A stretch of 64,000 nucleotides of DNA, taken from contig DASPWU010000186.1 of NCBI GenBank assembly GCA_035637675.1, positions 3,840 through 67,839 on the forward strand. The letters run 5' to 3'. Origin of the DNA: Candidatus Limnocylindria bacterium. Its GTDB lineage: Bacteria; Chloroflexota; Limnocylindria; Limnocylindrales; CSP1-4. The notes below the pieces were generated by a model that was not told where the DNA came from, ran no database searches, and was given only the letters and a program-made list of their open reading frames with translations. Numbering within the stretch: position 1 is the first letter of the stretch; every line of letters begins with the position of its first letter. Shown piece after piece: positions 11,536 to 48,112 of the stretch. Made by a program: the position numbers and the translations under genes.

Positions 11536-12624
11536 ATGGCCCATGTCTTCGTCGCGCCGCACCCCGACGATGTCGCGTTGTCGTGCGGCGGACTCATCGC
11601 CGGCCTTCGCGAGATCGGCCAGAACATCACGATCCTGACCGTGTACTCCGGCGCTACCCCGACGGGCGGCCTGTCGACCTACCAGCGTGAGGCACTGGGC
11701 TTTGGCACGAAGACGATCTGGCCGGTGACGGAGGCGTTCAACCGGTCCCACATCGCGGCGGACTATGCGCCTCATGCGGATCCTGTCGCGACCCTTCCGC
11801 CCTGGTCGGCGACCGCGGACCGGCTGGAGGCGACCCAGGCCGACGCGGATGCGGCGGCCAAGCGATTCTGGCAGCGCTCGTCGTGGTACCGGCGGGCGGA
11901 GATCCACAACGTTCCGCTCGGAGGGCAGCCGCTCATCGACGACGAGCCCAATCAGGGCGCGGTCATGACCGACGAATGGATGGACGCGGCCGGGGCCGGT
12001 GAGGCGATGGCGAGCCGGCGCCTGGAGGATGAGCGCTACGCGCTGTTCGCCGAGGCGTCGATCGTGTTTCTGGACCTGCCCGACGCGGTCTTCCGGGGCT
12101 ACGAGGGCGACGCCCAGCTGCTGGGCAGCCCTCGAGATGACGATCCGGCGCCGGTGGACATCCTGCGCCAGGAGATTGCTCGCCTCGAACCCCAGAAGGT
12201 GTACTTCCCGCTGGGTGTCGGCGGCCACGTGGATCACCAGTTGACCCGGGCGGCCGGCCTGGCGCTCCTGGGCGACGATCGACGATGGATCATGCCAGGG
12301 CCCGATTACGCCGGAGTGGTCACCTTCTACGAGGATTTCCCCTACGCCTGGTGGACCAGCTTCTCACGGCTGGAGGACCTGCCGCCCCAGGCCCTGGCGA
12401 ATCTGCCACCGGGCATCTCCCTGTGGCCCGAGTACGCTCCCATCGCCGATCAGATCGAGTACAAGGTGACGGGTGTCCGGCTGTACGCGAGCCAGCTGGA
12501 CCGGCTCTTCGGCGGCGTCCGGCCGATGGCCGACGCGGTCCGCCGGCAGGGCCGGCGGGTGGCCGAGCTGGGCGGGCTGACCGGCGGCTTCGCCGAGCGC
12601 TACTGGACGTCAGTCCGCGTCTGA
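11536..12624 (+). CDS. PIG-L/LmbE-family N-acetylglucosaminyl deacetylase with C-terminal extension
   Basis: MAHVFVAPHPDDVALSCGGLIAG..., the HPDDx zinc-binding signature of LmbE/MshB/PIG-L. A TATACT -10-like element lies 25 nt upstream. Confidence 0.75.
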   Translation: MAHVFVAPHPDDVALSCGGLIAGLREIGQNITILTVYSGATPTGGLSTYQREALGFGTKTIWPVTEAFNRSHIAADYAPHADPVATLPPWSATADRLEATQADADAAAKRFWQRSSWYRRAEIHNVPLGGQPLIDDEPNQGAVMTDEWMDAAGAGEAMASRRLEDERYALFAEASIVFLDLPDAVFRGYEGDAQLLGSPRDDDPAPVDILRQEIARLEPQKVYFPLGVGGHVDHQLTRAAGLALLGDDRRWIMPGPDYAGVVTFYEDFPYAWWTSFSRLEDLPPQALANLPPGISLWPEYAPIADQIEYKVTGVRLYASQLDRLFGGVRPMADAVRRQGRRVAELGGLTGGFAERYWTSVRV

Positions 12625-13451
12625 AGCCTGGCGGGCGGCCAGACGCGACCGTCGCGGAATCCGGGCCGGTTCTGGGGCGTCATGGCCACCAACATCGCCA
12701 GGCCATGGATCCAGAGGATCGGCAGGGCGAGCGTCGACCCCAGGGCGACCGTCCAGCGCCGGTTCGTGCGAGCGCCCCAGGCGACGATCAGCGCTCCGAC
12801 GGCGATACGCAGGAACGTCGAGACGTGGATCGCATTCGGGGCAGGTTCCGCGATCTCGTTCGACGTGAGCACGTGCCTGAGCCACGCCTGCCACAGGTCC
12901 GGCCGGGTAACGAGCGAAACGATGGTGATGCCCGCCGTGACCCCGACAGCGAGTGCCAGGTTGCGCCATTCGCGCCGGACGACGAACCAGACGAGACCGA
13001 CGCCACTGCTGATCTTGGTCAGGAGGACGACGCTCCACGCCCACGGGAACCGGAAGCCGAGCCAGATGGCCAGTGCCAGGAGCAGGTGGATGTTGCCGTG
13101 GTAGATCTCGATGGCGACCGGGGGGAAGGCGAGCCAGGCCAGGCCGTATCTGCCCCCGATGACGAGGAGCGCGGCAATCTGGACGACGAGGTAGACCCAG
13201 AACGCAGAGTCGAACGAGAACGGCTGGAGCGGAAGCGCCAGCCAGGCGGCCGGCGGGGTGTAGTGGAAGTGGCCGATGCCGTACGCGATGGCGTACGGGT
13301 TTCCGGGATCGACGTTCCAGTACGCGAAGAGGTCGAAGCCGTAGCCGCCGCCGACGAGGAGGTAGGCCAGGAGCGCAATGCCGGCAAACGCCAACCCGTC
13401 CAGGATCGGTCCTCGATAGCGCGACCAGGCGTAGGTGCCAAGCTCGGGCAT
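12600..13451 (-). CDS. DUF2029/GT87-like GT-C membrane glycosyltransferase (paralog of 38222..39130)
   Basis: Polytopic; FRFPWAWSVVLLTKISSGVGLVWFVVRREWRNLA closely matches FRWPAAWAFVLLSKVTPGIGLVWFAVRREWRALA in the paralog. Start taken at MPELGTYAW; the ORF extends to 13901. Confidence 0.65.
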   Translation of the reverse strand: MPELGTYAWSRYRGPILDGLAFAGIALLAYLLVGGGYGFDLFAYWNVDPGNPYAIAYGIGHFHYTPPAAWLALPLQPFSFDSAFWVYLVVQIAALLVIGGRYGLAWLAFPPVAIEIYHGNIHLLLALAIWLGFRFPWAWSVVLLTKISSGVGLVWFVVRREWRNLALAVGVTAGITIVSLVTRPDLWQAWLRHVLTSNEIAEPAPNAIHVSTFLRIAVGALIVAWGARTNRRWTVALGSTLALPILWIHGLAMLVAMTPQNRPGFRDGRVWPPARLQTRTDVQ

Positions 13452-13655
13452 CGAGCGGCCAGCGACTCTCGCCTCGGCGTTCAATGGCGTACATTCCCCT
13501 GGCAGTGTTGTGCGGGTGCAACGGTATCCCGTAGGTGGTCGCTCGCGCACCCCACCGATGGGCCGCCCCCCGACCAGTACCAGGGGATGTCGCCGCGCCG
13601 CGCCTACGCCGACGGTACTCTCAGGCCACAGCCCGAGCCTAACCTGCATCTCTAG

Positions 13656-14763
13656 AATGCCGGTCATGCCACCGAGTGTCGCGCCGGGCCCTGCCGCAGG
13701 GGTCGCTTCAGGAGCAACGCCGACGGTCCCGACCGGCCACTGGCGAACGCTGCCGGTCCTGCGCGTCTTCGGCGACTGGGGCCTGGATCTCAGCCTGCGG
13801 ATCGCCGCGACGGTCGCCCTCGTTCTGGCCGTGGCCTGGGTGGTAGGCAATGCCCGACCGTGGGCCACGGACCCGATGGTGTTCATCGCCGACACTTCCA
13901 ACTACTACGCAGCGGGCGAGCGCCTCAACGTCGGCCACTCGCTGTACGCATATGGCCCCGACGACCGGCACGTCCTGGCCCTGCTGTTCGGCCTGCCATC
14001 GCCGTATCTGTACCCGCCGCTGATGGGCGTGCTGTGGCGGCCGGTCGCGGCGCTCCTGCCGTTTGAGCCTGTCGTCATCGCCTTTTGGGCGGCTGGGATG
14101 GCCAGCCTCCTGGGGTTTCTGGTCTGGCTGCTATGGCGCGGTGGCCGGGCGACGGCGGCCGGATGCCTGATTCTGCTCGTGCCGCTCGCCATCACCGCGT
14201 GGTCGGGCAACGTGAGCACGTTCATCGCCATTGCGATCGTGGGCGCCTGGCTGCTCCTCCAGCGAGGTCATAACCGGGCCGCCGGGGCGATCATCGGCTT
14301 CACGACCGTGCTCAAGCTGTCGCCCGTCTTCCTGGGCTGGTGGCTGCTCGTGACGCGGCGCTGGAACGCACTCGCAGTGGGGATCGCTGTCGGGCTCGCG
14401 AGCCTGGCGGTGAGCGTGGCCGGCGCGGGCGTCGCGGCGCACGTGGAGTTTCTGCACGTCGGTGACGCCGCAGCCCGAGGAGGGGGCATCCAGGGCAGCA
14501 TCGTCGGGATTCTCTCGACCATCGGAACGCCGGCGGACGTGCTGCCACTCGTGGCACCGATCGTTTCGGTGGCCGGGCTCGTCTCGGTCTGGGCCCTTCG
14601 ACGTCACGAGCGGGCGGCCTGGGCGGTGGCGATCGCGACAGGCGTCTTCGCCTCTCCGATCTTCAACCTGACCAACGTGACGGTCCTCCTCGCGGCATTC
14701 GTGGCGTTCGACGGCCGCCTGACCGGCAGCGACGAGCCGTGTCCGGCACCGGCAGGCCCGTAA
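13656..14763 (+). CDS. DUF2029/GT87-like GT-C membrane glycosyltransferase
   Basis: Multi-TM; TVLKLSPVFLGWWLLVTRRW motif typical of DUF2029 (PimE-like). A conserved 19-nt motif lies about 40 nt upstream (see findings). Confidence 0.7.
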
Positions 14764-14774
14764 CGACTCCGATC

Positions 14775-16094
14775 ATGTCGAGCGCGGCGGAGATGCACGA
14801 ACCGCGCGAGACGCCGGGCGGCCGGGCCATCGGCCTCGCCGACCGCCTCGTACGCCACCGGGGGCTGATCCTCGTCGCCGCCGCGGGGATCGCCGTCCGA
14901 CTGGTCCTGCTACCCACGGTGGGCGTTCGCGACGATACGGACCTGTTCGCCGGCTGGGTCCACGGGCTGGCCGTGGGCCGGCTCGGTGAGGCCTACCGAC
15001 TGGAGCTCACGTTCCCACCCGTCATGGCATACATCCTGTGGCTGGTGAGCCTGATCCAGCCCGCCTTCCAGACGGCGACCAACGCCGCCGACGCGGCGGT
15101 TCGCATCGCCCTCAAGGCCCCGGCCAGCCTGGCGGACCTGGGCCTGGCCGCGGGCGTCTGGTGGTACCTGCGGACGAAGCCTGGCTGGGCGACGGTCGGG
15201 GCCGCCGCGATCCTGCTCCACCCGGCGGTCATCGACGTCAGTGCCTGGTGGGGCCAGTTCGAGTCGATCTACGTCTTCGCCGGCCTGGCTGCCTTCCTCC
15301 TGGCGGCTGCGGGCCGACCGCGCATGGCGGCCGTCGCCCTGGGGCTCGCGCTCATGACCAAGCCGCAGGCTCTGACGTTCGTCATTCCATTCGCCGCGTG
15401 GTACGTCGGCCGGCACGGCTGGCGAGAGACCGCCATCTGCGGCGCCATCGGCGTCGCCACGATCGCGGTCGTGTGGCTGCCGTTCCTTGCCGATGGCGGC
15501 GTGGGTCGGTACCTGAACACGCTCGAGCACCTCCAGAACGTCGACTTCAGCGTCCTGTCGCTCCGGGCGTGGAACCCGTGGTGGATCCTGCAGAGCGGAG
15601 CCGGGGGCGACTTCCTGAGCGATCGCGGCGCCCTCCTGGGCCCGCTCTCGCCGCGGACGATCGGGCTGGCCCTGTTCGGTCTCCTGGAGGCCGGCATCTT
15701 CGTCGCGGTCCTCCGACGACCGGATTCCCGGACTCTGGCGATCGGCCTGGCGGCGTCGGTGATGGCGGCGTTCATCACGCTGACGACCATGCACGAGCGC
15801 TACGCATACGGGGCGATCGTCTTCCTGGCGCTGCTCCTCCCCGAGCGCCGGCCCCGCTGGCTGTGGGCCGCGCTGTCGGTGGCCTTCACGGCGAACCTCC
15901 TTGCGGCGATCCCGCCACCTCCTCTCCTGGGCGTCATCCCGATCGGCGGTCCGGTCGGGCTCCTGGGGTCTGTGACGATGGTGGCCGTGGCGATCGGTTG
16001 CCTGACGTCGCTGGCCCAGGCGGTCCGGCGGCCAGCCGGTGACTCGTCCCTGGTCGTGACGCCGGCCCGCGTTGCCCGGCGCGGATCCGGGTGA
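14775..16094 (+). CDS. Polytopic membrane protein, probable GT-C glycosyltransferase
   Basis: About 11 TM helices with large loops. Follows a DUF2029 gene and precedes a translationally coupled membrane protein. No named motif recognised. Confidence 0.5.
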   Translation: MSSAAEMHEPRETPGGRAIGLADRLVRHRGLILVAAAGIAVRLVLLPTVGVRDDTDLFAGWVHGLAVGRLGEAYRLELTFPPVMAYILWLVSLIQPAFQTATNAADAAVRIALKAPASLADLGLAAGVWWYLRTKPGWATVGAAAILLHPAVIDVSAWWGQFESIYVFAGLAAFLLAAAGRPRMAAVALGLALMTKPQALTFVIPFAAWYVGRHGWRETAICGAIGVATIAVVWLPFLADGGVGRYLNTLEHLQNVDFSVLSLRAWNPWWILQSGAGGDFLSDRGALLGPLSPRTIGLALFGLLEAGIFVAVLRRPDSRTLAIGLAASVMAAFITLTTMHERYAYGAIVFLALLLPERRPRWLWAALSVAFTANLLAAIPPPPLLGVIPIGGPVGLLGSVTMVAVAIGCLTSLAQAVRRPAGDSSLVVTPARVARRGSG

Positions 16095-17461
16095 CGAACC
16101 CCGCCGTGCTTCGAAGCGTCCTCGACCGATACGCCGGCCGCATCTTCGCGCTGGTCGCGATCGGTGCCTGGGGGTTCCTCATCTGGATGGGACGCGGTCT
16201 CACCTTCTTCAGCGACGAATGGGCATTCATCGAAGGCCGCTCCCTGTTCGATCCCCCCACGTGGTTCGCGCCGCACAACGAGCACTGGTCCACGGTCCCG
16301 ATCGTCGTCTACCGGCTGCTCATGGAGGTGTTCGGGCTGCGGACCTACGTTCCCTACCTCGCGGTTCTCATCGGGCTTCACGTGCTGGCCGCCGCCGCCG
16401 TGTTTCTGCTGCTCCGGCGGTGGACCGGATCGCCGGCGGCGTTGGCTGGCGGAATCCTCGTGCTGTTCTTCGGGAGCGGCTTCGAAAACCTGTTCTGGGC
16501 GTTCCAGATCGCCTCCGTTGCGGCGGTTGCGGCGGGGCTCTGGACGGTCTGGCTCCTCCAGGAGCCGCCCACCGCCGCACGCGCCGGCGCCGTCGTGCTG
16601 CTCCTCGTCCTCAGCCTGGCGACGTCCGGGCTGGCCCTCATCTTTCTCGTCATCGTCACCCTGACGATGCTGCAGCGTCCGGCCTGGCGTCCCTACGCGC
16701 CCGGCCTGGTCGTGCCGGTGCTTGTCTATCTGGTGTGGTATCTCTGGATCGGTGGCACCGGAATCTCGGTGGTGCGGAATCCGTTCTCCCTGGATCAGCT
16801 GCTCCAGGCTCCGTGGTTCGTCGCGGAGGGGGTCGAGAATTCGATCGGCGCGTTGACTGGCCTCAGGCCCGTGTTCTCGGGGATCGTGTTCGTGGGCCTG
16901 GTGCTCGGGCTGCTGGAAGCGGTGGTCCGCGGACACCGCGTGCCCGTTCCGACGATCGCGCTGACCTTCGGGCTCATCCTGCAGTACGCGCTGATCGCGG
17001 TGGTCCGGGCGGGCGTCACCGTCGGTCAGTCGGGCTACACCCGGTACACCTATCTCGGCGGGATCCTGGCCCTGCTCGCCATCGCGGCGATGGCGGGGTC
17101 GATTCCGCTGCCGGCCGCGCCTGTGCGCAGGAGGGCCCTGTTCGTGGGCGCGACGCTGGTCCTGGAGGTCGCTCTCGTCTTCAACCTGCAGTTGCTCGTC
17201 GCCGGTCGTGACTTCTTCCTGGTCCGGGCCCAGTTCACCCGGGCACTCATCAGCGCCAGCCTGGCCGAGACGCCACCCGACGGGGTGGATCCGTCCCGTT
17301 CGCTGGTGATCGTTCCGTCACCCGAGTCGCTCCGCCGGATCGAAGCCGCCTATGGCCTGCCACTCACCGACAGCCTGGCCCTGGACGCGGTGCAGCCGGC
17401 GCCGGCCTGGATCGTGCACCTCGCCGATCTCCGCCTCCGGGGATTCGGGGTGGGGCCGTGA
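16091..17461 (+). CDS. Conserved polytopic membrane protein, unknown family (paralog of 23644..25032)
   Basis: Shares WMGRGLTFFSDEWAFIEGRSLFDPPTWFAPHNEHW...LRTYVPY...LVLFFGSGFENLFWAFQI with the paralog (about 60% identity). GTG start overlaps the upstream stop (GTGA). Confidence 0.7.
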   Translation: MTNPAVLRSVLDRYAGRIFALVAIGAWGFLIWMGRGLTFFSDEWAFIEGRSLFDPPTWFAPHNEHWSTVPIVVYRLLMEVFGLRTYVPYLAVLIGLHVLAAAAVFLLLRRWTGSPAALAGGILVLFFGSGFENLFWAFQIASVAAVAAGLWTVWLLQEPPTAARAGAVVLLLVLSLATSGLALIFLVIVTLTMLQRPAWRPYAPGLVVPVLVYLVWYLWIGGTGISVVRNPFSLDQLLQAPWFVAEGVENSIGALTGLRPVFSGIVFVGLVLGLLEAVVRGHRVPVPTIALTFGLILQYALIAVVRAGVTVGQSGYTRYTYLGGILALLAIAAMAGSIPLPAAPVRRRALFVGATLVLEVALVFNLQLLVAGRDFFLVRAQFTRALISASLAETPPDGVDPSRSLVIVPSPESLRRIEAAYGLPLTDSLALDAVQPAPAWIVHLADLRLRGFGVGP

Positions 17462-17508
17462 CCGGTCTGCGCGGTGATCGTCCCGGTACAGCGTCCGGTT
17501 CCCGCCCC

Positions 17509-18285
17509 TCAAGCCACCGGTGACCGGCGCCGGAAACGTTTACCCAGGCGTCGAAATCGGCCCCGGATCGCCACGGCGTACCAGCGCAGGTACTCCGGCA
17601 GCCACTTGCGAAGCCGGAAGTTGCTCTGCCCGGACGTCCGGTCGCGCCACGTCGTGGGGACCTCTGCCATCGGGCGGCCGGCGAGGGTCGCCTTGACCGT
17701 GAGCTCGAGGGCCAACTCGAATCCGGCCCGGCTCTCGATGGTCACGCTGTCCAGGAAGGCCCGGCGGTAGAGCCGGAAGTTGCTCGTCGCGTCGTGAACG
17801 GGCACGCCCGCGAACCAGTGCAGGCTGAGACCCGCCAGCCGGCTCATCAACGCCTTCAGGCGGGGTCCACCAACCTGCCGGCCGCCGCGCATATACCGGC
17901 TGCCTGCCACGACGTCCGCGCCGGCCCGGGCGAGGGCGACCATCCGCTCGACCACCTCGGGCTGGTCGGACCCGTCCGCCATCGTGACCAGCACATACTC
18001 GCCCCGCGCCGCCGCGAGCCCGGCGCGCAGCGCGTTCAGGACGCCCCGGCCGATATCGTTGCGCAGGCCGCGAACGGCGGGCAGCTCGACCGCGAGGCCG
18101 GCCAGGACGGGCACGGTCGTATCGCCCTCGAAGTCATACACGACGAGGGTCTCATGGGGGGTGGTGAGCGACGCCTCGAGCGCCCGAAGGACCGCGGCCA
18201 CCGCCTCCCCCTCGTTATAGACCGGCACGACGATGGACAGCTCGGGCAGCTTGGGCGTCGCCGGCGTGTTCGCCCGGGGGGTCAC
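17509..18285 (-). CDS. GT2 polyprenol-phosphate glycosyltransferase (Ppm1/GtrB-like)
   Basis: LSIVVPVYNEGEAV...VVYDFEGDTT...VTMADGSDQPE...DATSNFRLYRR. GTG start overlaps the methyltransferase stop (GTGA). The table ORF 17509..19239 is a readthrough into the next gene's region. Confidence 0.8.
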   Translation of the reverse strand: MTPRANTPATPKLPELSIVVPVYNEGEAVAAVLRALEASLTTPHETLVVYDFEGDTTVPVLAGLAVELPAVRGLRNDIGRGVLNALRAGLAAARGEYVLVTMADGSDQPEVVERMVALARAGADVVAGSRYMRGGRQVGGPRLKALMSRLAGLSLHWFAGVPVHDATSNFRLYRRAFLDSVTIESRAGFELALELTVKATLAGRPMAEVPTTWRDRTSGQSNFRLRKWLPEYLRWYAVAIRGRFRRLGKRFRRRSPVA

Positions 18286-18938
18286 GCCGGGCGCTCGCCC
18301 ACGTACAGCGTCTGCTTGCCCATGAGCCACCAGGCCGGCGGAAAGGCGAGGTAGGCGCGGACGAGGGCGGGGTGCTGGGGGAGCCGGCTCTTGGTCGTGT
18401 ACGGCAGGAACCGGGTCACGAGCGCGTGGGTCCGGAAGCCGGCGGTCAGGGCCGCCTCCTCGAGGCTGCGCTCCGTGAGCGGCACCTTGTGGTCGATGAA
18501 GTCCCAGTAACCGCCCCCGATCAGCCGGACATTGGGCTGGAGGACGATGACCCGGCCGCCCGGCCGGAGGACCCGATGGACCACCCGCAGTTGGTCCACG
18601 ACCGCGTCTCGCGAGGGAAGGTGCTCCAGGTAGTTGCTCATGAACGCCGTTCCGAAGTAGTCGGCCGGAACGGCCTCGTCCAGGGCGAGACCGTCCGCTC
18701 GTATGAAGCGGATGTCCGGCGGCAGGGACTCGCCCGGGTCGCGCAGGTCGGTGGCCCATCGTTCGAACTGCGGGACCTGACGGATGAAGTAGCCAAGGTC
18801 GCAGCCGATGTCGATCACCGGTCCGTCGACCATGTAGCGCCGAAGGTATTCTGCGATCGGCGGCCAGATCCGTTCCTTCGACGCGCGGTGGCGTTCGGGG
18901 AACCGCCTGGCGTAGACGCTGTCGAGATCGTCCGTCAC
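18282..18938 (-). CDS. Class I SAM-dependent methyltransferase
   Basis: VIDIGCDLGYF ... RVLRPGGRVIV methyltransferase motifs I and post-I. In a separate frame within the 576-aa readthrough ORF. Confidence 0.8.
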   Translation of the reverse strand: MTDDLDSVYARRFPERHRASKERIWPPIAEYLRRYMVDGPVIDIGCDLGYFIRQVPQFERWATDLRDPGESLPPDIRFIRADGLALDEAVPADYFGTAFMSNYLEHLPSRDAVVDQLRVVHRVLRPGGRVIVLQPNVRLIGGGYWDFIDHKVPLTERSLEEAALTAGFRTHALVTRFLPYTTKSRLPQHPALVRAYLAFPPAWWLMGKQTLYVGERPA

Positions 18939-21174: not shown

Positions 21175-21298
21175 GCGGCGAGCAGTGCCGGCGGGATGCC
21201 GCCCGTCAGGATGCGGAGCGCGATCTTGGACATCGCCGGACATGCTACCAGCCGGCGGCGCAGCACCGGGCGGCTCCGGTCGGGCAAGATACAGCCTC

Positions 21299-25032: not shown

Positions 25033-25053
25033 CGGGTTGGGACGTGCTGGCGG

Positions 25054-26127: not shown

Positions 26128-26151
26128 GCTCGCCCAGTCAGGGTCGCGGGT

Positions 26152-26925: not shown

Positions 26926-26963
26926 CGTCTCCCTCTCGCAACTCCGACCTGGGCGCGACTAGC

Positions 26964-29242: not shown

Positions 29243-29309
29243 GGTCGTCCGGTCGACCGGATTGGAGCACGGATCGAAGCTTTGATCGAGGCTGGGTCGA
29301 AGGCTCATC

Positions 29310-34864: not shown

Positions 34865-34900
34865 GTGATCACGTTTCCGTAAGCCTGCGATTGAAGCCGC

Positions 34901-36958: not shown

Positions 36959-37035
36959 GGCAGGGCCGGCCAGGACGGCTACGGGTGGGACGAGGTGGGG
37001 GGCAGAGGCGGCGCCGGTTGCGGGCTGAACGCGGG

Positions 37036-38214: not shown

Positions 38215-38221
38215 CGGGCGA

Positions 38222-40535: not shown

Positions 40536-41653
40536 CCGGTCTCCGCCGATCGAGGCTCGGGACCGTGGGCATCGCCGGCCGGTGCGCGAGCGACGGCACG
40601 CCCTGCGGCATCGTCGGGCCGCCGGCGCGAGCCGGTGACGAGCGGCGCGACCAGGCCGACGAGGAAGACCGGGGGATAGGCAAGCGGTCCCAGCCACGGC
40701 AGCAGCGGCAGGCCGATCGCCCACCACTGGCGGCGCTCGAGCAGCAACGCCATCGGGATCAGCAACAACATCGCGTAGTGCTCCCAGAGGAGTGGCGAGA
40801 CCACCTGGCTGCCGACGACCGTCGTGACGTAGCCACTGACGGCATCGGCCCGCCACCAGGAGTACAGGACCACGATCGCGGCGACGGCGACGCCGGCCCA
40901 CTGGATGGCGGTCGCCACCGCGAGGGACGCGCCGGCCGCGTAGGCGATCGCTCCGGCCGTGTAGTTGTGCGGCGTCGTCACGGGCGCGCTGACACGACCC
41001 AGGATCGCCAGATAGTCCGCCCACGTCGCCGGCCCCGTCAGGAGCGTCGCGACGGCGATCGCCGCCACCAGGAGGCCGAGCCCGATCGCCGCCGCTCGGG
41101 ACCGGCCGGTGGCGAACGCCCAGCCGAACAGGAGCGCCGGCTGGACCTTGACCAGCGTGCCGGCGGCCATCGAGATCGCGAGCGGCAGGGGCCGGTCCAG
41201 CCATCGCCACCCGGCGACGAATGCCAGGAACAGGAGCGGGCCAACCTGCCCGAGCTTGATCGAATAAAGGAACGGCCAGCAGAGCCCGGCCAGCAGCAAC
41301 GTCGCCCAGCGCACCCGGCGGCTCGCCGGCAGCAGCCAGACGCCGGCTGCGAAGGCGAGCGCGAGCACGACCGTCCAGGCTGCCGGGCCGGTCCCCGGGG
41401 GGAGCCAGGTGAACGGGATCATCGCGATCGCGAACGGCGGCGGGTACAGGTAGATCGCGAACGGGCCGGCGACGTCGACGCTTGGGTCGTACAGCGGCTG
41501 GCCCGCCAGCAGCCGGTTGGCCGCCTGCACGTAGGCCTGGTAGTCGTAGCCGAGTGTCGAGCCGGCTGCCACGGCGATGGCAACGAGCGCCGCCACGAAG
41601 ACGAGAACCGCCACGATCGGCAGGGCGGCATCGAGCATGCGGCGAGCCACCAA
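40532..41653 (-). CDS. DUF2029/GT87-like GT-C membrane glycosyltransferase
   Basis: GTLVKVQPALLFGWAF motif; polytopic. Hidden in an alternative frame of the 1,095-aa table ORF. Confidence 0.7.
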   Translation of the reverse strand: MVARRMLDAALPIVAVLVFVAALVAIAVAAGSTLGYDYQAYVQAANRLLAGQPLYDPSVDVAGPFAIYLYPPPFAIAMIPFTWLPPGTGPAAWTVVLALAFAAGVWLLPASRRVRWATLLLAGLCWPFLYSIKLGQVGPLLFLAFVAGWRWLDRPLPLAISMAAGTLVKVQPALLFGWAFATGRSRAAAIGLGLLVAAIAVATLLTGPATWADYLAILGRVSAPVTTPHNYTAGAIAYAAGASLAVATAIQWAGVAVAAIVVLYSWWRADAVSGYVTTVVGSQVVSPLLWEHYAMLLLIPMALLLERRQWWAIGLPLLPWLGPLAYPPVFLVGLVAPLVTGSRRRPDDAAGRAVARAPAGDAHGPEPRSAETG

Positions 41654-41659
41654 GACCGG

Positions 41660-42484
41660 TCAGCCGCCCGCCGTGCCGGACCTGCCGGGCCGGGTCGACC
41701 GGCCGAAGCCCCGGTGAAGCATCGGGATTCGCAGGACGTCCCAGGCGACGCGAGCGGCCAGCCTGGGGCCGGCCCGCATCCTGGATCCGCGCCGGTCGTA
41801 CCAGCGGATGGGCACGATCGCGATCTCGTAGCCGCGCCGGCGGGCCAGGAAGATGAGCTCGACGTCGAACACGATGCTCGTGATCCGCTGCTCCGCGAAC
41901 AGGTCGTGGGCCGCCTCGCGGCTGAACGCCTTGAAGCCGCACTGCGTGTCCTGGACGTCGCCCACGACCCATGCCGAAGCGAAGGCATGGAACGCCTTGC
42001 CGAGCAGCCGCCGGTAGAGGGGCTGTGAGCCGCGCATGTCGGAGCCATCGTGCTGGATCCTGCTGCCGAGCGCGACGTCGTGATCGTCCAGCGCGCGGAC
42101 GATGAGCGGGAACTGGTCGGGCGGCGTGGCCATGTCCGCGTCGGCGAACACGATCAGGTCCGTCTGTGCGGCGAGCATGCCCGCCCGGACGGCCGCGCCC
42201 TTGCCGCCGTGGGGCACGGAGATGAGCTCCAGTGTCGGCGCCGTCCCGTCGGCTGCAGGGGCCGCCTCCGGCCTGCCCTGCACCAGGGCCCGCGTGGCGT
42301 CCGAGCTCCCGTCGTCCACGACCAGCACGTGGATCTCGGCCGGCAGCAGACCGGCGCCCTGGGCCTGGTCGCGGGCCTGGTCGCCGCGTCGCCGCAGGTA
42401 GCCGAAAAGCTCGTCGAGTGCCGGCCCGATCCTGGCGGCCTCGTTGTAGGCCGGCAGCACGATCGTGAGGGAACGGGTCTGCAT
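41660..42484 (-). CDS. GT2 polyprenol-phosphate glycosyltransferase (Ppm1/GtrB-like)
   Basis: LTIVLPAYNEAARI...VVDDGSSDAT...FADADMATPP...QCGFKAF. First gene of a long minus-strand operon running from 42484 down to 31569. Confidence 0.85.
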   Translation of the reverse strand: MQTRSLTIVLPAYNEAARIGPALDELFGYLRRRGDQARDQAQGAGLLPAEIHVLVVDDGSSDATRALVQGRPEAAPAADGTAPTLELISVPHGGKGAAVRAGMLAAQTDLIVFADADMATPPDQFPLIVRALDDHDVALGSRIQHDGSDMRGSQPLYRRLLGKAFHAFASAWVVGDVQDTQCGFKAFSREAAHDLFAEQRITSIVFDVELIFLARRRGYEIAIVPIRWYDRRGSRMRAGPRLAARVAWDVLRIPMLHRGFGRSTRPGRSGTAGG

Positions 42485-42570
42485 CCGGCGAGTGTAGTGG
42501 GGGCGGGCCGCCCCGCGACGGTACTCTCGGGCCAGTCGCGGGCCCCATCCACGCGAGGCATCATTGGGTC

Positions 42571-43380
42571 ATGTTCCGATCCCCCGCGGGAGCGCCAGCC
42601 TCGGTCGACCGCCCTGCCCTCGATCGCGCCGCGCTCGTCCGGCGGCTCGTCGTGGTGGCGTCGCTGACGGTCATCGGGGTCGAGATCCTTGCCTTCGCGA
42701 TCGGCTGGATCGCCTGGCGAGACCGGATCCCGCTGGGGCTGGATTGGCTCGGCTATCGGGCGGGGGTCGAGCGGCTGGTCGCCACGGGCAGCCCGTACGC
42801 GCCGTTCGAGCTGGCCGGCCCGTTCGTGCCCGAGCATCTCGACTTCATCCATCCGCCCAACGCGCTGCTCCTCTTCGCCCCGTTCGTCGTACTGCCGCAG
42901 CCCCTGGACTTCATCGCCTGGGACGCGATCCCGCTCGCCGTGCTGGCGTACTCCCTCCGCCGCCTTGCCTGGTGGGCCTGGCCATTCGTCGCCCTCCTTG
43001 GCGCGACCGACTCGCTCCAGTACCCGATCCTCAACGGCAACAGCTCGCTGTGGATGTGCGCCGCCTTCAGCCTGGGCCTCCGGTTCGGCTGGCCGGCCGG
43101 GCTCATCGCGATGAAACCCTCGCTCGCGCCGCTGGCCGTCGTCGGCCTCCGTCGCCCGTTGCCGGCGATCGTCCTCGCCGCCGTTCCCATCGTGCTGACT
43201 CTGCCGCTCCTGCCGGCCTACCTGGTCGTGCTCCGGAACGCGAACCTGGGCCCGAGCTACTCGATCACCCAGTACTCGCTGGTGGCCCTGGCTGCCTGGC
43301 CGTGGCTGGCCGAGCGGCTCCCCGGCTGGCTGCAGCGCGTCCGCGCCGCCAGGCCGCGGGCCAGCCAACGAGCCGCCTGA
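42571..43380 (+). CDS. Small DUF2029-core-like membrane protein (paralog of 30736 and 34040)
   Basis: HPPNALLLFAPFVVLP...LIAMKPSLAPLAVVG. The conserved upstream motif lies at 42515..42533. Confidence 0.65.
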   Translation: MFRSPAGAPASVDRPALDRAALVRRLVVVASLTVIGVEILAFAIGWIAWRDRIPLGLDWLGYRAGVERLVATGSPYAPFELAGPFVPEHLDFIHPPNALLLFAPFVVLPQPLDFIAWDAIPLAVLAYSLRRLAWWAWPFVALLGATDSLQYPILNGNSSLWMCAAFSLGLRFGWPAGLIAMKPSLAPLAVVGLRRPLPAIVLAAVPIVLTLPLLPAYLVVLRNANLGPSYSITQYSLVALAAWPWLAERLPGWLQRVRAARPRASQRAA

Positions 43381-43389
43381 CGAAGCCGA

Positions 43390-44649
43390 TCAGGCGGACG
43401 TGCGGTTGGCCGGGTTGGCCTGAGGCCAGCAGGCCGCGAGAACGAACGCCACCGCCAGCCAGACGGCGACCGGCTCCGAGATCGACAACGCGGCGACCAC
43501 CAGCGCAGCGATGAGCAACGCCGCAGTCCGTCCCGCACGGGCCGATTCACGCGCCCCCAGCCAGGCGGCCGCGGCAAACGGGAGCATTGCGACCGGGTAG
43601 TGGAACCAGGTGATCGGCAACACGACGAGCGACACGGCGGCAGCCACGGCCAGGCTCAGTGTCGCCGGCCTCAGGAACCAGGCGGTCGCGGCAGTCACGG
43701 CCAGCGCGACCAGGGTCACCGCCGGGGTGAGGCGCACGGCAACGCCCAGATCGCCGGTCAGCAGGGCGAGCTGGCTGGCCGGGCCGACGTTCAGCCGAGA
43801 GACGAAGTCCGCCCCGGTGCCCGACCGCAGGACGTTCAGGTACTCGGCCCACGGGTCCGTTCCCCAGATCGCCAGGCTGGCGATGACGATGCCTGCGATG
43901 GTCGTGAGCGCGACGCCCAGGGATGGCCAGGCCGCGCCTGCCGCGCGCGACGGGCTCGCGCCGTCGCCGGGATTCGCGCCGGGATTCGTGCCGGGATTCG
44001 CGCGGCCACCCCGGCGGTCGCGCAACCCGCGGATCGCCAGCCAGCCCAGGAGCGCCGTGGGGTGGAGCTTGGCCAGGCTGATGAGGCCGATTGCGATCCC
44101 ACCGCCGATCCGCCAACGGGTCGTACCGCCGGTCGCGGCGAGGAGGGCGGCGCCGTACGCCAGCGGGAACCATGCGTCGAGGTTACCGAACAGCAGGGCG
44201 ATCGCGAAGGGATAGACGAACGGTGCCAGCGCCAGGGCGGGCAGGACGGCGTCGACCGCCGGGGATCCGGGGGCCGCGCCGCGGCTCAGCGCTCCAACGA
44301 CCGCGGCGAACCCGATGGTGGCGGCGACGCCCATCGCCACGAGGACCAGCCCGTCCGGCAATCCAGACACGAGCGAGGCCGCCTGAGCGACCGGCGGCGG
44401 GTAGGAGTAAAAGAGGTTCTCGACCTGCGTGCCCAGGCCGACCGACCCAGCCAGATAGGGGCTCGTCCCGCCGGCGACATGGCGACCCGCCTCCAGGATC
44501 AGCGCGAGGTCGAAACCGGCCCGGGGCGGACGCTGGGCGAACAGCGCGGCACCCAGGAGGACCAGGCCCGTCCAGCCGATGGCGCCGACGAGAAGCCAGA
44601 CGAGCCGCCGGAAACGGCGGTCGGCGAACGGACGGGCGAGGGCAGTCAC
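43390..44649 (-). CDS. DUF2029/GT87-like GT-C membrane glycosyltransferase
   Basis: ISLAKLHPTALLGWLAIR motif; polytopic. Contains an internal NPG tandem repeat. Confidence 0.6.
   Translation of the reverse strand: MTALARPFADRRFRRLVWLLVGAIGWTGLVLLGAALFAQRPPRAGFDLALILEAGRHVAGGTSPYLAGSVGLGTQVENLFYSYPPPVAQAASLVSGLPDGLVLVAMGVAATIGFAAVVGALSRGAAPGSPAVDAVLPALALAPFVYPFAIALLFGNLDAWFPLAYGAALLAATGGTTRWRIGGGIAIGLISLAKLHPTALLGWLAIRGLRDRRGGRANPGTNPGANPGDGASPSRAAGAAWPSLGVALTTIAGIVIASLAIWGTDPWAEYLNVLRSGTGADFVSRLNVGPASQLALLTGDLGVAVRLTPAVTLVALAVTAATAWFLRPATLSLAVAAAVSLVVLPITWFHYPVAMLPFAAAAWLGARESARAGRTAALLIAALVVAALSISEPVAVWLAVAFVLAACWPQANPANRTSA
43968..44003. repeat. 3 x 12-bp tandem repeat (cgggattcg[c/t]gc) inside the CDS, encoding ANPGTNPGANPG
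   Basis: Direct read of the sequence. The in-frame repeat lies in a loop region of the DUF2029 protein. Confidence 0.8.
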
Positions 44650-44792
44650 GCGCGCATCCTAGTCGGCGCGATGGGTCACGAGCGAGGCCGCGAAGGGCCG
44701 AAGGGAGCCCGGTCGCACGGTCGTCCGGGTCGCGGACTGGCCCAATCGTACCGGTCAGAACCGGCCAGACCCGGTGCTAGACTGCACCGGCC

Positions 44793-46469
44793 GTGCGGAC
44801 CCCCGTCACCCTGTTTGTGTTCGCCCTCGTGGTCCGGACCATCCTCGTGGCGCTCTATCCGGATCCGGCGTACCCCGACTCCTATTACTACGTGGATGTC
44901 GCCCGGGCGCTCAACGCCGGCCACGGTTTCAACATCGACTTCATCTGGGCGTTCGTGGAGACCGGCGGCCAGCTGCCGGCCAACCCGCAGCTGCCGATCC
45001 CCAGCAACGCCCACTGGCTACCGCTCGCGTCGCTCATCCAGCTGCCCTTCCTGGCCATCCTGGGAACCTCGCCCACGGTCGCGATGATCCCGTTCGTGAT
45101 CATCGGCGCGACCGCCGCCCCGCTCACCTGGGCAATCGCGCGCGACGTCGGCGCCAGCCGGGCGATCCAGATCGGCGCGGGCCTCATGACCGCCGTGCCG
45201 GCGGCCTCGACCGTGTTCATGGCCCAGCCCGACAACTTCGCGCTCTACCAGCCCCTGGGTGCCGCCGCCCTGTGGCTCGGCGCGCGAGCGCTCAAGGGCG
45301 ACCGGCGGGCCTTCGCCCTGGCCGGCCTGCTGGTTGGCCTCGCCTCGCTGGCCCGCAACGACGGCGTGCTCATCGGCCTGGCCCTGGCCATCGCCTTCTT
45401 CTGGGACCGCTGGCGAGCGTGGCGCTCCGGAAGCAGCCGGCGCCCGGCGATCGGCTGGGGCCAGGCCGTCGCCTGCGCCGCGCTGTTCGCTGTCGTCGTG
45501 GCTCCGTGGTGGATCCGACAGCTCGCGGTATTCGGCAGCATCTCGCCGTCGTCGGCGTCAGGCCGGATCCTGTGGATCCGCCAGATCACGGACATGAACA
45601 GCGTGACGATCCCGGCGACGCCCCAGACGTTCCTGGCCCAGGGCCTGGGTCCGCTGCTCGAGAGCCGGGTGTTCGGCTTCATCGCGGCGGTCGGGAACTA
45701 CGTGATCATCGTCCTCTCCTTCGTCCTGACGCCGTTTCTCATCGTGGGCGCGTGGATCCGGCGGAGCTCCATCGACTACCGGATCTTCTTCATCTACTCC
45801 GCCCTCCTGTTCGCCGCGGCGGGCCTGATCTTCGCCATCCACGTGCCGCTGGGCATGTTCCTCCACTCGGCCGTCGCGTTGGTGCCCCACACCTACATCC
45901 TGGTCCTGGAGGGAGTCGTGGCCGCGGTCGTCTGGATGGCCCGTAAACGGCGGAGCTGGAACCAGGCGGAGGCAACCCGCTTCTTCCTGGCGGCGACCGT
46001 CGGAGTCGCCTTTCTGACGGGCGCCCTGGGTACCTGGAAGGTCCACGAGGAATGGGCCCGGATGCGCCACGACCGACAGATGGCGGCGGCCGCCATGGAC
46101 CGTCTCGGAATCGGCCCGGATGAACGGGTCATGAGCGGCGACACGGCCGGCTTCAAGTACTTCACGGGTCGCGGCGGAGTCGTGACGGTCAGCGACCCGG
46201 TCGACGTGATCGGCCAGGTCGGTCGGGCCTATGGCGTCCGCTGGCTGATCCTGGAGCGGACCCACATCGTGGATACGCTCGGGCCGGTCCTCAAGGGCAC
46301 CCTCCGACCGAGCTGGCTGGGGTCGCCGGCCTGGTCGCTCGACGAGACGGCACAGCAGGATCCGGGCGACACCTACCCCGACATCGCCCTGTACCCGGTC
46401 TGCTTTGCGCCCGGCGATCTTCGCTGCGCCACGGCGATGGGGACCGCAGGGCCCTCCAGCCGGCCGTGA
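44793..46469 (+). CDS. GT39/GT83-like (PMT_2/ArnT-type) GT-C membrane glycosyltransferase
   Basis: N-terminal LYPDPAYPDSYYYVDVARALNAGHGF first-loop motif typical of ArnT/Pmt enzymes. A TAGACT -10-like element lies 14 nt upstream of the GTG. Confidence 0.65.
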   Translation: MRTPVTLFVFALVVRTILVALYPDPAYPDSYYYVDVARALNAGHGFNIDFIWAFVETGGQLPANPQLPIPSNAHWLPLASLIQLPFLAILGTSPTVAMIPFVIIGATAAPLTWAIARDVGASRAIQIGAGLMTAVPAASTVFMAQPDNFALYQPLGAAALWLGARALKGDRRAFALAGLLVGLASLARNDGVLIGLALAIAFFWDRWRAWRSGSSRRPAIGWGQAVACAALFAVVVAPWWIRQLAVFGSISPSSASGRILWIRQITDMNSVTIPATPQTFLAQGLGPLLESRVFGFIAAVGNYVIIVLSFVLTPFLIVGAWIRRSSIDYRIFFIYSALLFAAAGLIFAIHVPLGMFLHSAVALVPHTYILVLEGVVAAVVWMARKRRSWNQAEATRFFLAATVGVAFLTGALGTWKVHEEWARMRHDRQMAAAAMDRLGIGPDERVMSGDTAGFKYFTGRGGVVTVSDPVDVIGQVGRAYGVRWLILERTHIVDTLGPVLKGTLRPSWLGSPAWSLDETAQQDPGDTYPDIALYPVCFAPGDLRCATAMGTAGPSSRP

Positions 46470-48112
46470 CCCGACGCGAAGCCTGGCTGAGTGCCGGCGG
46501 CCTGTTCGTCCTCGCCCTCGTCGTCCGGTCGGCCATCGCCACCACAATCCCCTTCCCGACGCCGGAAGATACCGCCTACTACTACGGCGTGGCCCGGAAC
46601 CTGGTCGAAGGGCGGGGCCTCGTGTCCGACGCGATCTGGAGCTTCGGGACCCCGCCTCTGACATTTCCGCGCCCCGCGTTCGAGGTCTGGCTGCCGCTGC
46701 CCACGCTCCTGGCCGCGATTCCGATGCTCGTCCTGGGCACCGGCTTCCACGTCGCCCAGGTGGGCACGGTGGTCGTCGGGGCGCTCGTGCCGGTCCTGGC
46801 CTGGCGCCTGGCCGCCGACGTGGCGGCGGAACGGAGCCTGCCGCTCGGACGGGCCCGGACCTTGGCGCTGGGCTCCGGTCTGACGGCGATCATCCTCCTG
46901 CCCCTCGTGCTCCACGGCGTCCTGCCGGACTCGACGACGCCGTTCACCGCAATCGCGCTGGCGGCTTGCCTGCTGATGAGCCGTCTGGCCGGCGACGCCG
47001 GTCGCGTCCGATCGGCCGACCCGCGGCTCCTGGGGCTCGGCCTGCTGTTCGGCCTGGCGGCTCTGACCCGGAACGAGGTCGCCTGGCTGGGCCTCGCATG
47101 GATCCTCCTCGTCTGGCGGGCCGGTGGCGGCATGCCGACGCGCGCTCAACGGCTCCGGCTCGTCGCGATACCGGCCGCGATCGGGATCCTCGTGCTGGCG
47201 CCCTGGCTCGTCCGGGACTGGCTGACGTTCGGCAGCCCGCTGCCTGGCCAGGCCGCGACGAACGCGCTCTCGGTCAGCGGCTTCGACGTCTTCGCCTACC
47301 AGCAGCCCCCGACCCTTGCCCGCTACCTCGCCCAGGGGCCGGGCTGGCTCGTGTCGTCGCGGATCGAGGGCCTCACCCACAACCTGGTTACCGTGCTCCT
47401 CCTGCCCAGCGTGCCGGTTGGGATCGTGGGCCTGCTCGCCCTGCCCTGGACCGGCCGCGCGCGGGCCCTCCGGCCGGTCGTTCTGGTGTCGGTCCTGACC
47501 TTCGTCGCGACGACCCTGCTGTTCCCCGTCTCGACCACGTGGGGCACCTTCCTGCACGCGGCCGGCCCTATTCACGTCCTGCTCATCGTCAGCTGCCTCC
47601 TGGCGCTCGATGCTGCCATCGCCCGGCTGGGGGCCTGGCGCGGCTGGACTCGACCCGTCGCCTGGCTGGGTCCCGCACTGACGGTGTTCATGGCCGTCCT
47701 GTTCAGCGTCGGCATCCTCGGCTACGCGGGCCAGGCGCGCCAGGTCGAGCGCCGCTACCAGGCCCTGGGACCGGCCCTCGTCCCGGCCCTGGCCGCAGTC
47801 GGCCAGGGCGATCTGCGCAGTCCGGTCATCGCCGACTTCCCGATCTGGTACGCGGAGGGGATGCGGCAGCAGGCGCTCGCCCTGCCGGACGAGCCGCCCG
47901 CCGCGATCCTCGATCTGGCCCGCCGGTTCGGGGCCCGGCTCCTCGTCATCAGCAAGCCGGACCATGGCCGCTGGCCGGCCGTGCTCGACGCCGGCGGCCC
48001 CGACGCGGCCTGTTTCAGCGAGCTGCACCTCCCCGCGCCGGCCAATGCTGCTTCGGCGGAGGCGTTGCGGGGGACGCGCGCCTTCCTCATCACGCTGGTA
48101 GGCTGCCCGTGA
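46466..48112 (+). CDS. GT39/GT83-like (PMT_2/ArnT-type) GT-C membrane glycosyltransferase, paralog of the preceding gene
   Basis: TIPFPTPEDTAYYYGVARNLVEGRGL motif. GTG start overlaps the upstream stop (GTGA). Confidence 0.65.
   Translation: MTRREAWLSAGGLFVLALVVRSAIATTIPFPTPEDTAYYYGVARNLVEGRGLVSDAIWSFGTPPLTFPRPAFEVWLPLPTLLAAIPMLVLGTGFHVAQVGTVVVGALVPVLAWRLAADVAAERSLPLGRARTLALGSGLTAIILLPLVLHGVLPDSTTPFTAIALAACLLMSRLAGDAGRVRSADPRLLGLGLLFGLAALTRNEVAWLGLAWILLVWRAGGGMPTRAQRLRLVAIPAAIGILVLAPWLVRDWLTFGSPLPGQAATNALSVSGFDVFAYQQPPTLARYLAQGPGWLVSSRIEGLTHNLVTVLLLPSVPVGIVGLLALPWTGRARALRPVVLVSVLTFVATTLLFPVSTTWGTFLHAAGPIHVLLIVSCLLALDAAIARLGAWRGWTRPVAWLGPALTVFMAVLFSVGILGYAGQARQVERRYQALGPALVPALAAVGQGDLRSPVIADFPIWYAEGMRQQALALPDEPPAAILDLARRFGARLLVISKPDHGRWPAVLDAGGPDAACFSELHLPAPANAASAEALRGTRAFLITLVGCP

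Follow-up and report, generated by a model that had tools for sequence, protein, structure and literature searches.

A Limnocylindria chromosomal locus dense in GT-C glycosyltransferase genes that very probably builds an uncharacterised cell-surface glycoconjugate

The pairing of a polyprenyl-phosphate-sugar synthase, a flippase and a glycosyltransferase of the GT-C class as a three-component system is an established and widespread concept (PMC11127046). It takes in the Gtr-, GT136- and Arn-type systems, the last with the set Ugd, ArnA, ArnC and ArnT. The streptococcal Pgf and the Bacillus and Listeria CsbB-YfhO/GtcA systems combine a GtrB-like GT2 enzyme, a YfhO-type GT-C and an epimerase, and decorate teichoic acids or adhesins with a single sugar. 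In mycobacteria, the phosphatidylinositol mannosides, lipomannan and lipoarabinomannan (PIM/LM/LAM) are assembled by PimA and PimB' (GT4), Ppm1 (GT2), PimE, MptA, MptB and MptC (GT87), and the Emb and Aft GT-C enzymes, while the core of the eukaryotic glycosylphosphatidylinositol (GPI) anchor relies on PIG-A, PIG-L, PIG-M, PIG-V and PIG-B. Here, we focus on a 64-kb stretch of DNA from Candidatus Limnocylindria bacterium, an uncultured soil member of the Chloroflexota (GenBank assembly GCA_035637675.1, contig DASPWU010000186.1, positions 3,840 to 67,839; hereafter the window, numbered from its own first nucleotide) and on a locus at 12,600-48,112 within it that is crowded with GT-C genes. This locus very probably builds a cell-surface glycoconjugate outside the membrane. 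It works in the manner of PIM/LM and Gtr/Arn-type assembly, yet is a member of none of these pathways. It represents a variant of known polyprenyl-phosphate-sugar/GT-C glycan assembly rather than a new mechanism; the locus itself is uncharacterised, as originally supposed (no paper describing it was found), and unusually dense in GT-C genes. Literature searches likewise returned no publication on GT-C expansions in Limnocylindria or Chloroflexota.

Since the window is about 70% G+C throughout, which yields many spurious open reading frames (ORFs), genes were called by their third-position GC content (GC3). This gave 48 genes in the window, with lengths that match those on independent public contigs. 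The interval 12,600-48,112 holds 28 genes, 96.5% of its bases are coding, and neighbouring genes frequently share 4-nt stop/start overlaps; GC3 is 0.85-0.93 in every gene of the locus and no frameshift is present. The GT-C fold was assigned to 18 of the 28 by Pfam, BLASTP grouping, hhalign and predicted structures: 11 are of the GT87/PimE type, three of the PMT_2/PIG-V type (g27, g34 and g35), one is DUF6044/YfhO-like (g16) and the others (g11, g17 and g29) belong to families for which Pfam has no model. Seven ORFs of the locus have no Pfam match (g11, g17, g23, g25, g29, g32 and g35); all are polytopic membrane proteins, and BLASTP groups them as g11 with g17 (61% identity), g23 with g25 and g32 (35-48%), and g35 with g34 (33%). 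The number of GT-C genes in this 36-kb locus of a small genome is about that of the whole M. tuberculosis genome. A nineteenth GT-C gene of the window (g48, PMT_2; 62,295-63,881, forward strand) stands 14 kb downstream of the locus beside an ArsR/DUF2087 regulator.

The original prediction, made from the letters of the window and its ORFs, had described about 30 genes that were almost all membrane GT-C enzymes. The dense GT-C locus stands, at the smaller count given above. Its estimate of at least 10 DUF2029/GT87 paralogs agrees with the 11 now assigned, six by Pfam score and five by profile comparison. Four genes had been called ArnT/PMT-type; g34 and g35 are so by sequence, the other 'ArnT-like' genes by fold only. 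The gene called YfhO has the expected architecture without the family score. A PIG-V-like gene (g27, above the PF04188 cut-off), two Ppm1-like GT2 enzymes (g12 and g31, closest to polyprenyl-phosphate-sugar synthases), a GT4, a nucleoside diphosphate (NDP)-sugar dehydrogenase, an epimerase, two methyltransferases and a CelD-like acyltransferase were all recovered. The LmbE/PIG-L deacetylase had been counted inside a locus starting at 12,600; the gene is real and lies at 11,536-12,624, largely ahead of that start. The list had missed two membrane-embedded spermidine-synthase-like proteins, g24 and g26, which are not GT-C enzymes. Hidden Markov model (HMM) searches, in which the membrane proteins might have emerged as transporters or permeases, found GT-C signatures, and the combined evidence supports their reading as GT-C enzymes.

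The GT87/PimE-type genes carry much of the argument. With Pfam GT87 (PF09594, gathering cut-off 25 bits), six of the 11 pass (26.5-78 bits), g10 and g33 score below the cut-off and g23, g25 and g32 have no match. When compared by hhalign with a core of the six above-threshold members, g10 is matched at 90% probability (E 1.6e-6), g33 at 97.4% (E 9e-12) and the short family g23/g25/g32, of about 270 amino acids (aa), also at 97.4% (E 9e-12). The profile of all 11 matches PimE (9dm5) at E 7e-16 and PIG-M at 2e-4. All 11 paralogs share an invariant Asp and Lys (D37 and K169, numbered as in g30), which in the profile-to-9dm5 alignment fall on PimE D58, at the tip of JM1, and K195. D58 is the catalytic base of PimE and K195 binds phosphate, and both are essential (PMC12041525). 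The short form occurs at the same position in relatives with just 60-65% protein identity; orthologs of g32 have 276 and 275 aa, respectively, in two such loci, L059 and L060. To our knowledge, all characterised GT87 enzymes use glycolipid or lipoglycan acceptors; PimE provides an example (PMC12041525).

Donor sugars for these enzymes could come from g12 and g31, which sequence comparison places in the polyprenyl-phosphate-sugar synthase subgroup of GT2 (DPM1/Ppm1/GtrB/ArnC type). The only matches of g12 in the Protein Data Bank (PDB) are DPMS (5mlz, 7.5e-18), ArnC and GtrB. Taken together, the best NCBIfam matches of the two are AglJ, dolichyl-phosphate hexose transferase (the best for g31), ArnC, PgfS and PpgS, all far below the equivalog cut-offs. 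An identical g31 protein is present on 11 independent contigs. Successive 4-nt overlaps link the genes g15, g14, g13 and g12 in translational coupling, which points to a route from NDP-hexose to polyprenyl-phosphate sugar; g31 heads a second operon with four GT-C genes and g26. The Arn pathway to 4-amino-4-deoxy-L-arabinose (L-Ara4N) was considered and rejected: neither an aminotransferase nor a formyltransferase (ArnB, ArnA) accompanies the locus, so that the donor is not L-Ara4N, and g14 reaches 39 bits against an ArnA cut-off of 777.

A further group of genes suggests cytoplasmic priming of an acceptor. The closest solved structure to the GT4 enzyme g21 is BshA (4.5e-29), followed by PimB' (8e-22), MshA and PimA, and g21 lies below every equivalog cut-off (TIGR03999 BshA, 134 versus 273.7 bits; TIGR03449 MshA, 101 versus 462.5 bits). 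Only 1 nt separates it from the GNAT gene g22, a pair retained in L059 and L060; g22 has no sequence match in the PDB. The PIG-L-family deacetylase g07 probably starts at M70 of the ORF that opens at 11329, giving 362 aa, the length of its ortholog in L059. Its zinc motifs HPDD and HVDH (HxDH) are present, and the gene is syntenic in about 30 loci from metagenome-assembled genomes (MAGs). Transfer of N-acetylglucosamine followed by de-N-acetylation is a logic that occurs in the GPI, mycothiol and bacillithiol pathways. Exact look-ups found no protein identical to g21, g16 or g15.

The remaining GT-C genes are more divergent. Topology prediction gives g16 about 14 N-terminal transmembrane helices, a soluble domain and a C-terminal transmembrane helix, a YfhO-like architecture. 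Its Pfam YfhO score of 25.3 bits is under the cut-off of 28.5 and covers the C-terminal 50 residues only; the C-terminus resembles PgfM1, and g16 has no PDB sequence match. For the families of g11 and g29, profile and sequence searches found no relatives among known families or PDB chains, and hhalign comparisons with the GT87 and PMT_2 sets of the window were not significant. AlphaFold (AF2) models built on deep alignments of metagenomic homologs reached a predicted local distance difference test score (pLDDT) of 92 for g11 and 87 for g29. The best Foldseek matches of the g29 model are AglB, Pmt4 (TM-score 0.55), PimE, ArnT, ALG12 and AftB, and g11 resembles AftB at the level of the fold only; structure prediction, the one approach to do so, places g11/g17 and g29 in the GT-C fold superfamily. 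Across 63 sequences of the g11 family (motif FFSDEW), D42 never varies and E43 shows at least 90% conservation; the g29 family retains D50 and D56 without exception in 53 sequences. In the models, these acidic residues would lie just after the first transmembrane helix, in the first extracytoplasmic loop. The g29 family comprises 1,697 homologs, those listed being at least 58% identical, and the g11 family 4,808 clusters at 50% identity (E up to 1e-3). Ten distant members of the latter were tested and none carries a Pfam glycosyltransferase domain. One of them (P0362, 1304 aa, from the representative library) is fused to Wzy_C (O-antigen ligase/polymerase) and an S-adenosylmethionine (SAM) methyltransferase, which ties the family to surface-glycan assembly. 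As AglB was its top match, g29 was considered as an oligosaccharyltransferase; this was rejected, as the protein has 424 aa and lacks the C-terminal periplasmic domain. Inside the coding sequence of g17 lies the sole ARAGORN match, a 95-nt tRNA-Cys(ACA) at 23746-23840 (forward strand) that is probably a false positive.

The two spermidine-synthase-like membrane proteins are of the type that NCBIfam names 'fused MFS/spermidine synthase', for whose function no relevant literature was found. The Pfam MFS_1 and Spermine_synth matches of g24 are both weak. In g26, transmembrane bundles flank the Rossmann domain on both sides; the domain matches PDB spermidine synthases at E ~5e-7 and carries the motif IIGAGSGTD, motif I reading GAGSG rather than GGGDG.

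How the locus compares with the described systems can now be set out. With PIM/LM/LAM assembly it shares a GT4 of the same subgroup, a soluble polyprenyl-phosphate-sugar synthase and multiple GT87 enzymes with the Asp and Lys of PimE; both lack a phosphoglycosyltransferase, Wzx and Wzy, and both would elongate with GT-C enzymes outside the cytoplasm. In contrast to the mycobacterial genes, which are scattered, those described here lie in one locus, and the host is a monoderm member of the Chloroflexota. Among the 48 genes of the window, Pfam and NCBIfam identify no PatA-type acyltransferase, no UbiA or DprE1/2 genes for an arabinose donor (DPA) and nothing related in sequence to Emb or Aft. 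Additional components of the locus are a uronic-acid/short-chain dehydrogenase/reductase (SDR)/methyltransferase donor branch, PIG-L, GNAT, the spermidine-synthase-like membrane proteins and two GT-C families outside Pfam. The likeness to the GPI core consists of a GT4-type transferase, a PIG-L-family deacetylase and GT-C enzymes of the kind that use dolichyl-phosphate mannose; g07 and g27 pass the PIG-L and PIG-V Pfam cut-offs at family level, and the match of the GT87 profile to PIG-M is a weak one. Ethanolamine-phosphate transferases, a PIG-W-type inositol acyltransferase and a transamidase are absent from the window, and the kinship of GT4 and PIG-L is at superfamily level, a likeness of logic, not orthology.

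Three-component systems of Gtr, GT136 and Arn type resemble the locus in the combination of GT2 synthase, GT-C and donor-diversifying dehydrogenase and SDR (cf. Ugd-ArnA-ArnC-ArnT; PMC11127046). They differ in having a GtrA, MATE or ArnE/F flippase, none of which is found in the locus, and in having one synthase per GT-C, whereas here two synthases accompany 18. The Pgf and CsbB-YfhO systems share with it a GtrB-like GT2, an epimerase and the YfhO architecture of g16, including its PgfM1-like C-terminus, but only one of the 18 GT-C enzymes is YfhO-like and that one scores below the YfhO threshold. The similarity to PIM/LM/LAM or GPI assembly put forward earlier thus holds for the logic and the parts list and fails for pathway membership, several defining parts not being found in the window. 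Pfam also identified no initiating phosphoglycosyltransferase, Wzx, Wzy, ATP-binding cassette (ABC) exporter or LytR-CpsA-Psr (LCP) ligase in the 64 kb (no match to Bac_transf, Glycos_transf_4, Polysacc_synt, ABC2_membrane, LytR_cpsA_psr or Wzy_C), which speaks against a classical undecaprenyl-diphosphate pathway and favours extracytoplasmic assembly of the PIM/LM kind on a lipid, or alternatively a protein, acceptor.

The family and fold assignments, retained catalytic residues, operon coupling, conservation and synteny described here form the basis for a proposed scheme, in which we infer what the sugars and the acceptor are, how the reactions follow one another and which parts PIG-L, GNAT, the methyltransferases and the spermidine-synthase-like proteins play. 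In the cytoplasm, the g15-g14-g13-g12 operon would use an NDP-hexose to make a sugar that derives from a uronic acid and may be methylated, and load it onto polyprenyl phosphate, while g31 would supply a second polyprenyl-phosphate sugar. The GT4 enzyme g21, probably together with g07 and g22, would prime and tailor a membrane-bound acceptor, conversion of an N-acetylhexosamine to a hexosamine glycolipid being favoured. After flipping, the 18 GT-C enzymes, fed by at least two polyprenyl-phosphate sugars, would act at the outer face of the membrane to elongate the glycan and give it branches, with one type of linkage per enzyme. The product would most likely be a lipid-anchored heteroglycan, a lipoglycan of the PIM/LM kind. 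We regard it as evenly balanced that this is a multi-branch locus of polyprenyl-phosphate-sugar synthases and GT-C enzymes that makes the main glycoconjugate of the cell envelope, with such a lipoglycan as the most likely form.

Several observations weigh against this scheme. The GT-C fold is by itself no proof of activity, and the residue equivalent to PimE Y62 varies among the 11 GT87-type paralogs (Tyr in six, Phe in three, Leu or Ile in two). The NCBIfam and PDB matches of g14 are generic only, so that g14 does not fix the donor sugar, and since GT4, PIG-L and GNAT are all far below every equivalog cut-off, their substrates are guesses from sequence. No GtrA, MATE or Wzx flippase is found in the locus, where the only MFS-like domains are those of g06 and g24. 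Nothing in the window identifies a phosphatidylinositol, diacylglycerol or protein anchor. The organism is uncultured, and chemistry for comparison is wanting.

An alternative that we consider unlikely is that the locus encodes a protein O-glycosylation machine in which g34, g35, g27 and g16 would place the first sugar, taken from a polyprenyl-phosphate sugar, on Ser or Thr of secreted or surface proteins (for example an S-layer protein or the adjacent Flp pilins) and the GT87 enzymes would elongate it. The PMT_2 (PF13231) matches in g34 and g27 would suit such a role, but PMT_2 is common to ArnT-type lipid and glycan transferases, and the window holds no match to PMT (PF02366) or MIR, its only other PMT_2 match being g48. 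Streptococcal Pgf protein glycosylation offers a parallel in PgfS, which g12 and g31 resemble, and in the YfhO/PgfM1-like C-terminus of g16. The conserved neighbourhood 3 kb downstream includes four Flp pilin genes and a Tad locus, though this adjacency may be mere class-wide synteny, the left flank being equally conserved. The glycolipid or lipoglycan acceptors of characterised GT87 enzymes argue against protein as the acceptor, and 18 GT-C enzymes far exceed any known bacterial O-mannosylation system.

Distinctly improbable, in our judgement, is a wall-linked polysaccharide of arabinogalactan, teichuronic-acid or secondary-cell-wall-polymer type, whose backbone would be made elsewhere and decorated after export by the GT-C enzymes as Gtr-like side-chain transferases. 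A dehydrogenase such as g15 points to uronic acids of the kind found in teichuronic acids (sub-threshold matches include TuaD and TuaC), g27 matches the AZOBR_p60025 'cell surface glycopolymer formation' family, and the three-component logic is widespread (PMC11127046). That polymer initiation and export genes are missing from the locus would agree with a backbone made elsewhere, yet the lack of LCP ligase, phosphoglycosyltransferase, Wzx/Wzy and ABC exporter extends across the 64-kb window; side-chain decoration normally uses one GT-C per modification, not 18, and a cytoplasmic GT4/PIG-L/GNAT set in the locus suits acceptor priming better.

Least probable by a clear measure is that many paralogs are non-functional or redundant duplication relics around a small core that makes a simple glycolipid, with GT4, PIG-L and GNAT possibly making an unrelated thiol of bacillithiol or mycothiol type: BshA is the best structural match of g21, BshB and MshB are PIG-L/LmbE enzymes and MshD is a GNAT, the GT-C number varies and three paralogs are short, but all 11 GT87 paralogs retain the catalytic Asp and Lys, the GC3 range and reading frames are intact, the short form persists at its position in distant relatives, g21 scores far below the BshA and MshA cut-offs, the window holds no BshC or MshC, and GT-C genes surround the trio in all the relatives examined.

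Contigs at least 99% identical (JGI, ENA, NCBI and Logan assemblies) cover 12,967-27,194 and 31,660-52,496 in the same gene order, and for the remaining stretch this order is matched by MAG CF_114, whose nucleotide identity is about 78%. Because independent contigs reproduce the gene order, most of the locus is no assembly artefact, a possibility that the original prediction had raised. Its word 'island', taken as acquired DNA, does not survive: a mobile-island reading was rejected, as there is no integrase, insertion sequence element or flanking repeat, G+C is uniform and the flanks are conserved. Limnocylindria have a median genome of 2.39 Mb with 68.9% GC (PMC10608941), which the composition of the window matches. 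Almost all homologs of g11 and g29 belong to Chloroflexota MAGs that bear the label Candidatus Limnocylindrales or 'uncultured Chloroflexia'.

Some 30 Limnocylindrales MAGs share the syntenic core g07-g10-g11-g12-g13-g14-g15-...-g21-g22, in smaller versions of the locus between the same flanks. The retained order is DUF5317/MFS, PIG-L, g10, g11, GT2, methyltransferase, SDR and dehydrogenase, then variable GT87 genes, then GT4, GNAT and MFS/spermidine-synthase-like genes. Counted by HMM with domain envelopes, GT-C ORFs number from about 9 to 18 per locus between lineages. L059 and L060 each show the whole locus in compact form, about 20 kb long and containing 9-10 GT-C genes, bounded by the PIG-L gene and by the same HisKA_3/LuxR two-component genes and Flp pilins. 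Even a close relative, L013 (g11 ortholog 83% identical), already differs in gene content: in this locus (JGI 3300066662), g16 is absent and a 632-aa gene without a Pfam match stands at 4035-5933, between epimerase and dehydrogenase. The locus in the window is an expanded version of a class-wide chromosomal locus with a lineage-variable GT-C complement. The density once called highly unusual is therefore typical of the lineage and only further expanded here, and since the GT-C count varies, the structure of the glycan is probably lineage-specific.

Table 1. Genes of the locus and adjoining features, with coordinates in the window.
Gene	Predicted product	Coordinates	Strand	Basis or remark
g07	PIG-L/LmbE-family deacetylase	11536..12624	+	PF02585 50 bits, cut-off 28.2
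g08	GT87-type GT-C	12600..13484	-	Pfam GT87 52 bits; 39% identical to g28
g09	GT87-type GT-C	13657..14763	+	Pfam GT87 78 bits
g10	Divergent GT87/ALG6-like GT-C, class-conserved core	14775..16094	+	Alg6_Alg8 24.8 bits, GT87 20.6 bits
g11	Predicted GT-C, family A without Pfam model, class-conserved core	16091..17461	+	
g12	Soluble GT2, putative polyprenyl-phosphate-sugar synthase	17509..18285	-	Pfam GT2; no transmembrane helices
g13	SAM methyltransferase	18282..18938	-	Methyltransf_23; 4-nt overlaps with g12 and g14
g14	SDR NDP-sugar epimerase/dehydratase	18935..19960	-	Pfam Epimerase 134 bits
g15	NDP-sugar 6-dehydrogenase	19957..21174	-	Three UDPG_MGDP_dh domains; TIGR03026 274 bits, above cut-off
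g16	DUF6044/YfhO-like, 800 aa	21299..23701	+	DUF6044 100 bits
g17	Predicted GT-C, g11 paralog (family A)	23656..25032	+	61% identical to g11; DNA repeat D1
g18	GT87-type GT-C	25054..26127	-	Pfam GT87 26.5 bits
g19	SAM methyltransferase	26152..26925	-	Methyltransf_23/11/25
g20	GT87-type GT-C	26964..28037	-	Pfam GT87 42.8 bits
g21	Cytoplasmic GT4 (GT-B), BshA/PimB'/MshA/PimA group	28064..29308	-	Pfam
g22	Acetyltransf_6, CelD/FemAB/Mig-14-like GNAT	29310..30566	-	Pfam 123 bits
g23	Short GT87-like GT-C, ~278 aa	30736..31572	+	hhalign; D58 and K195 equivalents present
g24	Fused MFS-like membrane domain and spermidine-synthase-like domain	31569..33869	-	NF037959 82 bits
g25	Short GT87-like GT-C	34040..34753	-	48% identical to g23; hhalign
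g26	Polytopic membrane protein with embedded spermidine-synthase-like Rossmann domain	34901..37039	-	Pfam Spermine_synth 31.5 bits
g27	PIG-V/PMT_2-type GT-C	37036..38214	-	PF04188 40.1 bits (cut-off 22.4); PMT_2 28.6 bits
g28	GT87-type GT-C	38222..39130	-	Pfam GT87 48.5 bits
g29	Predicted GT-C, family B without Pfam model, highly conserved in class	39261..40535	-	
g30	GT87-type GT-C	40532..41653	-	Pfam GT87 72.9 bits
g31	Second soluble GT2, putative polyprenyl-phosphate-sugar synthase	41660..42484	-	Pfam GT2; no transmembrane helix
g32	Short GT87-like GT-C	42571..43380	+	37% identical to g23; hhalign
g33	Divergent GT87-type GT-C	43390..44649	-	Pfam 23.5 bits, below threshold
g34	PMT_2 (ArnT/PMT-like) GT-C	44793..46469	+	Pfam PMT_2 40.9 bits
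g35	g34 paralog, PMT_2-like	46466..48112	+	33% identical to g34, E 5e-26
	HisKA_3 histidine kinase and LuxR-type response regulator	48109..49991	+	Pfam; likely regulatory module

On the right, the locus runs into signalling and pilus genes. Two HisKA_3 kinases with a LuxR-type regulator between them occupy 48109-51321. The first kinase and the regulator overlap g35 and each other by 4 nt, an adjacency kept in L059 and L060, so that this two-component pair seems to share a transcript with g34 and g35, the last two PMT_2 GT-C genes. Four tandem Flp/Fap-type pilin genes (51361-52596) lie directly upstream of the Tad pilus locus; three encode 56 aa and the other about 75 aa, the processing sites are of the G/LAEY or G/LTEY type, and the array is also present in L005 and L060. 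The Tad/Flp operon itself (52724-58615) encodes RcpC/CpaB, a CpaE-like ATPase with an N-terminal receiver domain, CpaF, TadB and TadC; an identical CpaF protein occurs on 10 contigs drawn from several soil metagenomes. On the left, a DUF5317 domain fused to an MFS_3/MFS_1 transporter (8630-10768, forward strand) stands directly upstream of PIG-L in nearly all Limnocylindrales loci examined and could be considered as a transporter or flippase serving the locus. Further out are an HD-GYP-type HD_5 protein (7202-8626), encoded where the window is poorest in GC, and a 1151-aa AAA/TPR/BTAD (AfsR/SARP-like) regulator (3291-6746, forward strand) whose GC3 of 0.74 is clearly below that of its neighbours.

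The GT-C class is the least explored of the glycosyltransferase classes, and bacterial assembly lines with multiple GT-C enzymes are understood essentially only for the mycobacterial envelope. With the locus come two sizeable GT-C families for which Pfam lacks a model. A more far-reaching reading, which we put forward tentatively and hold to be possible rather than probable, is that Limnocylindria make a large, lineage-variable, lipid-anchored heteroglycan, a functional analogue of actinobacterial LM/LAM or of a GPI-like glycolipid, that would be assembled almost wholly outside the cytoplasm by up to 18 GT-C enzymes from one locus, with the spermidine-synthase-like proteins adding a non-sugar substituent. 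If true, it would take lipoglycan pathways beyond Actinomycetota and Bacillota for the first time, and no known GT-C assembly line would be denser. Limnocylindria are abundant in soil and freshwater and essentially uncultured, and their envelope chemistry is not on record. The two donor synthases, the priming set of GT4, PIG-L and GNAT, and the defined catalytic residues provide an entry point to a surface glycoconjugate of the Chloroflexota, and the locus allows a test of whether variation in GT-C copy number creates serotype-like diversity.

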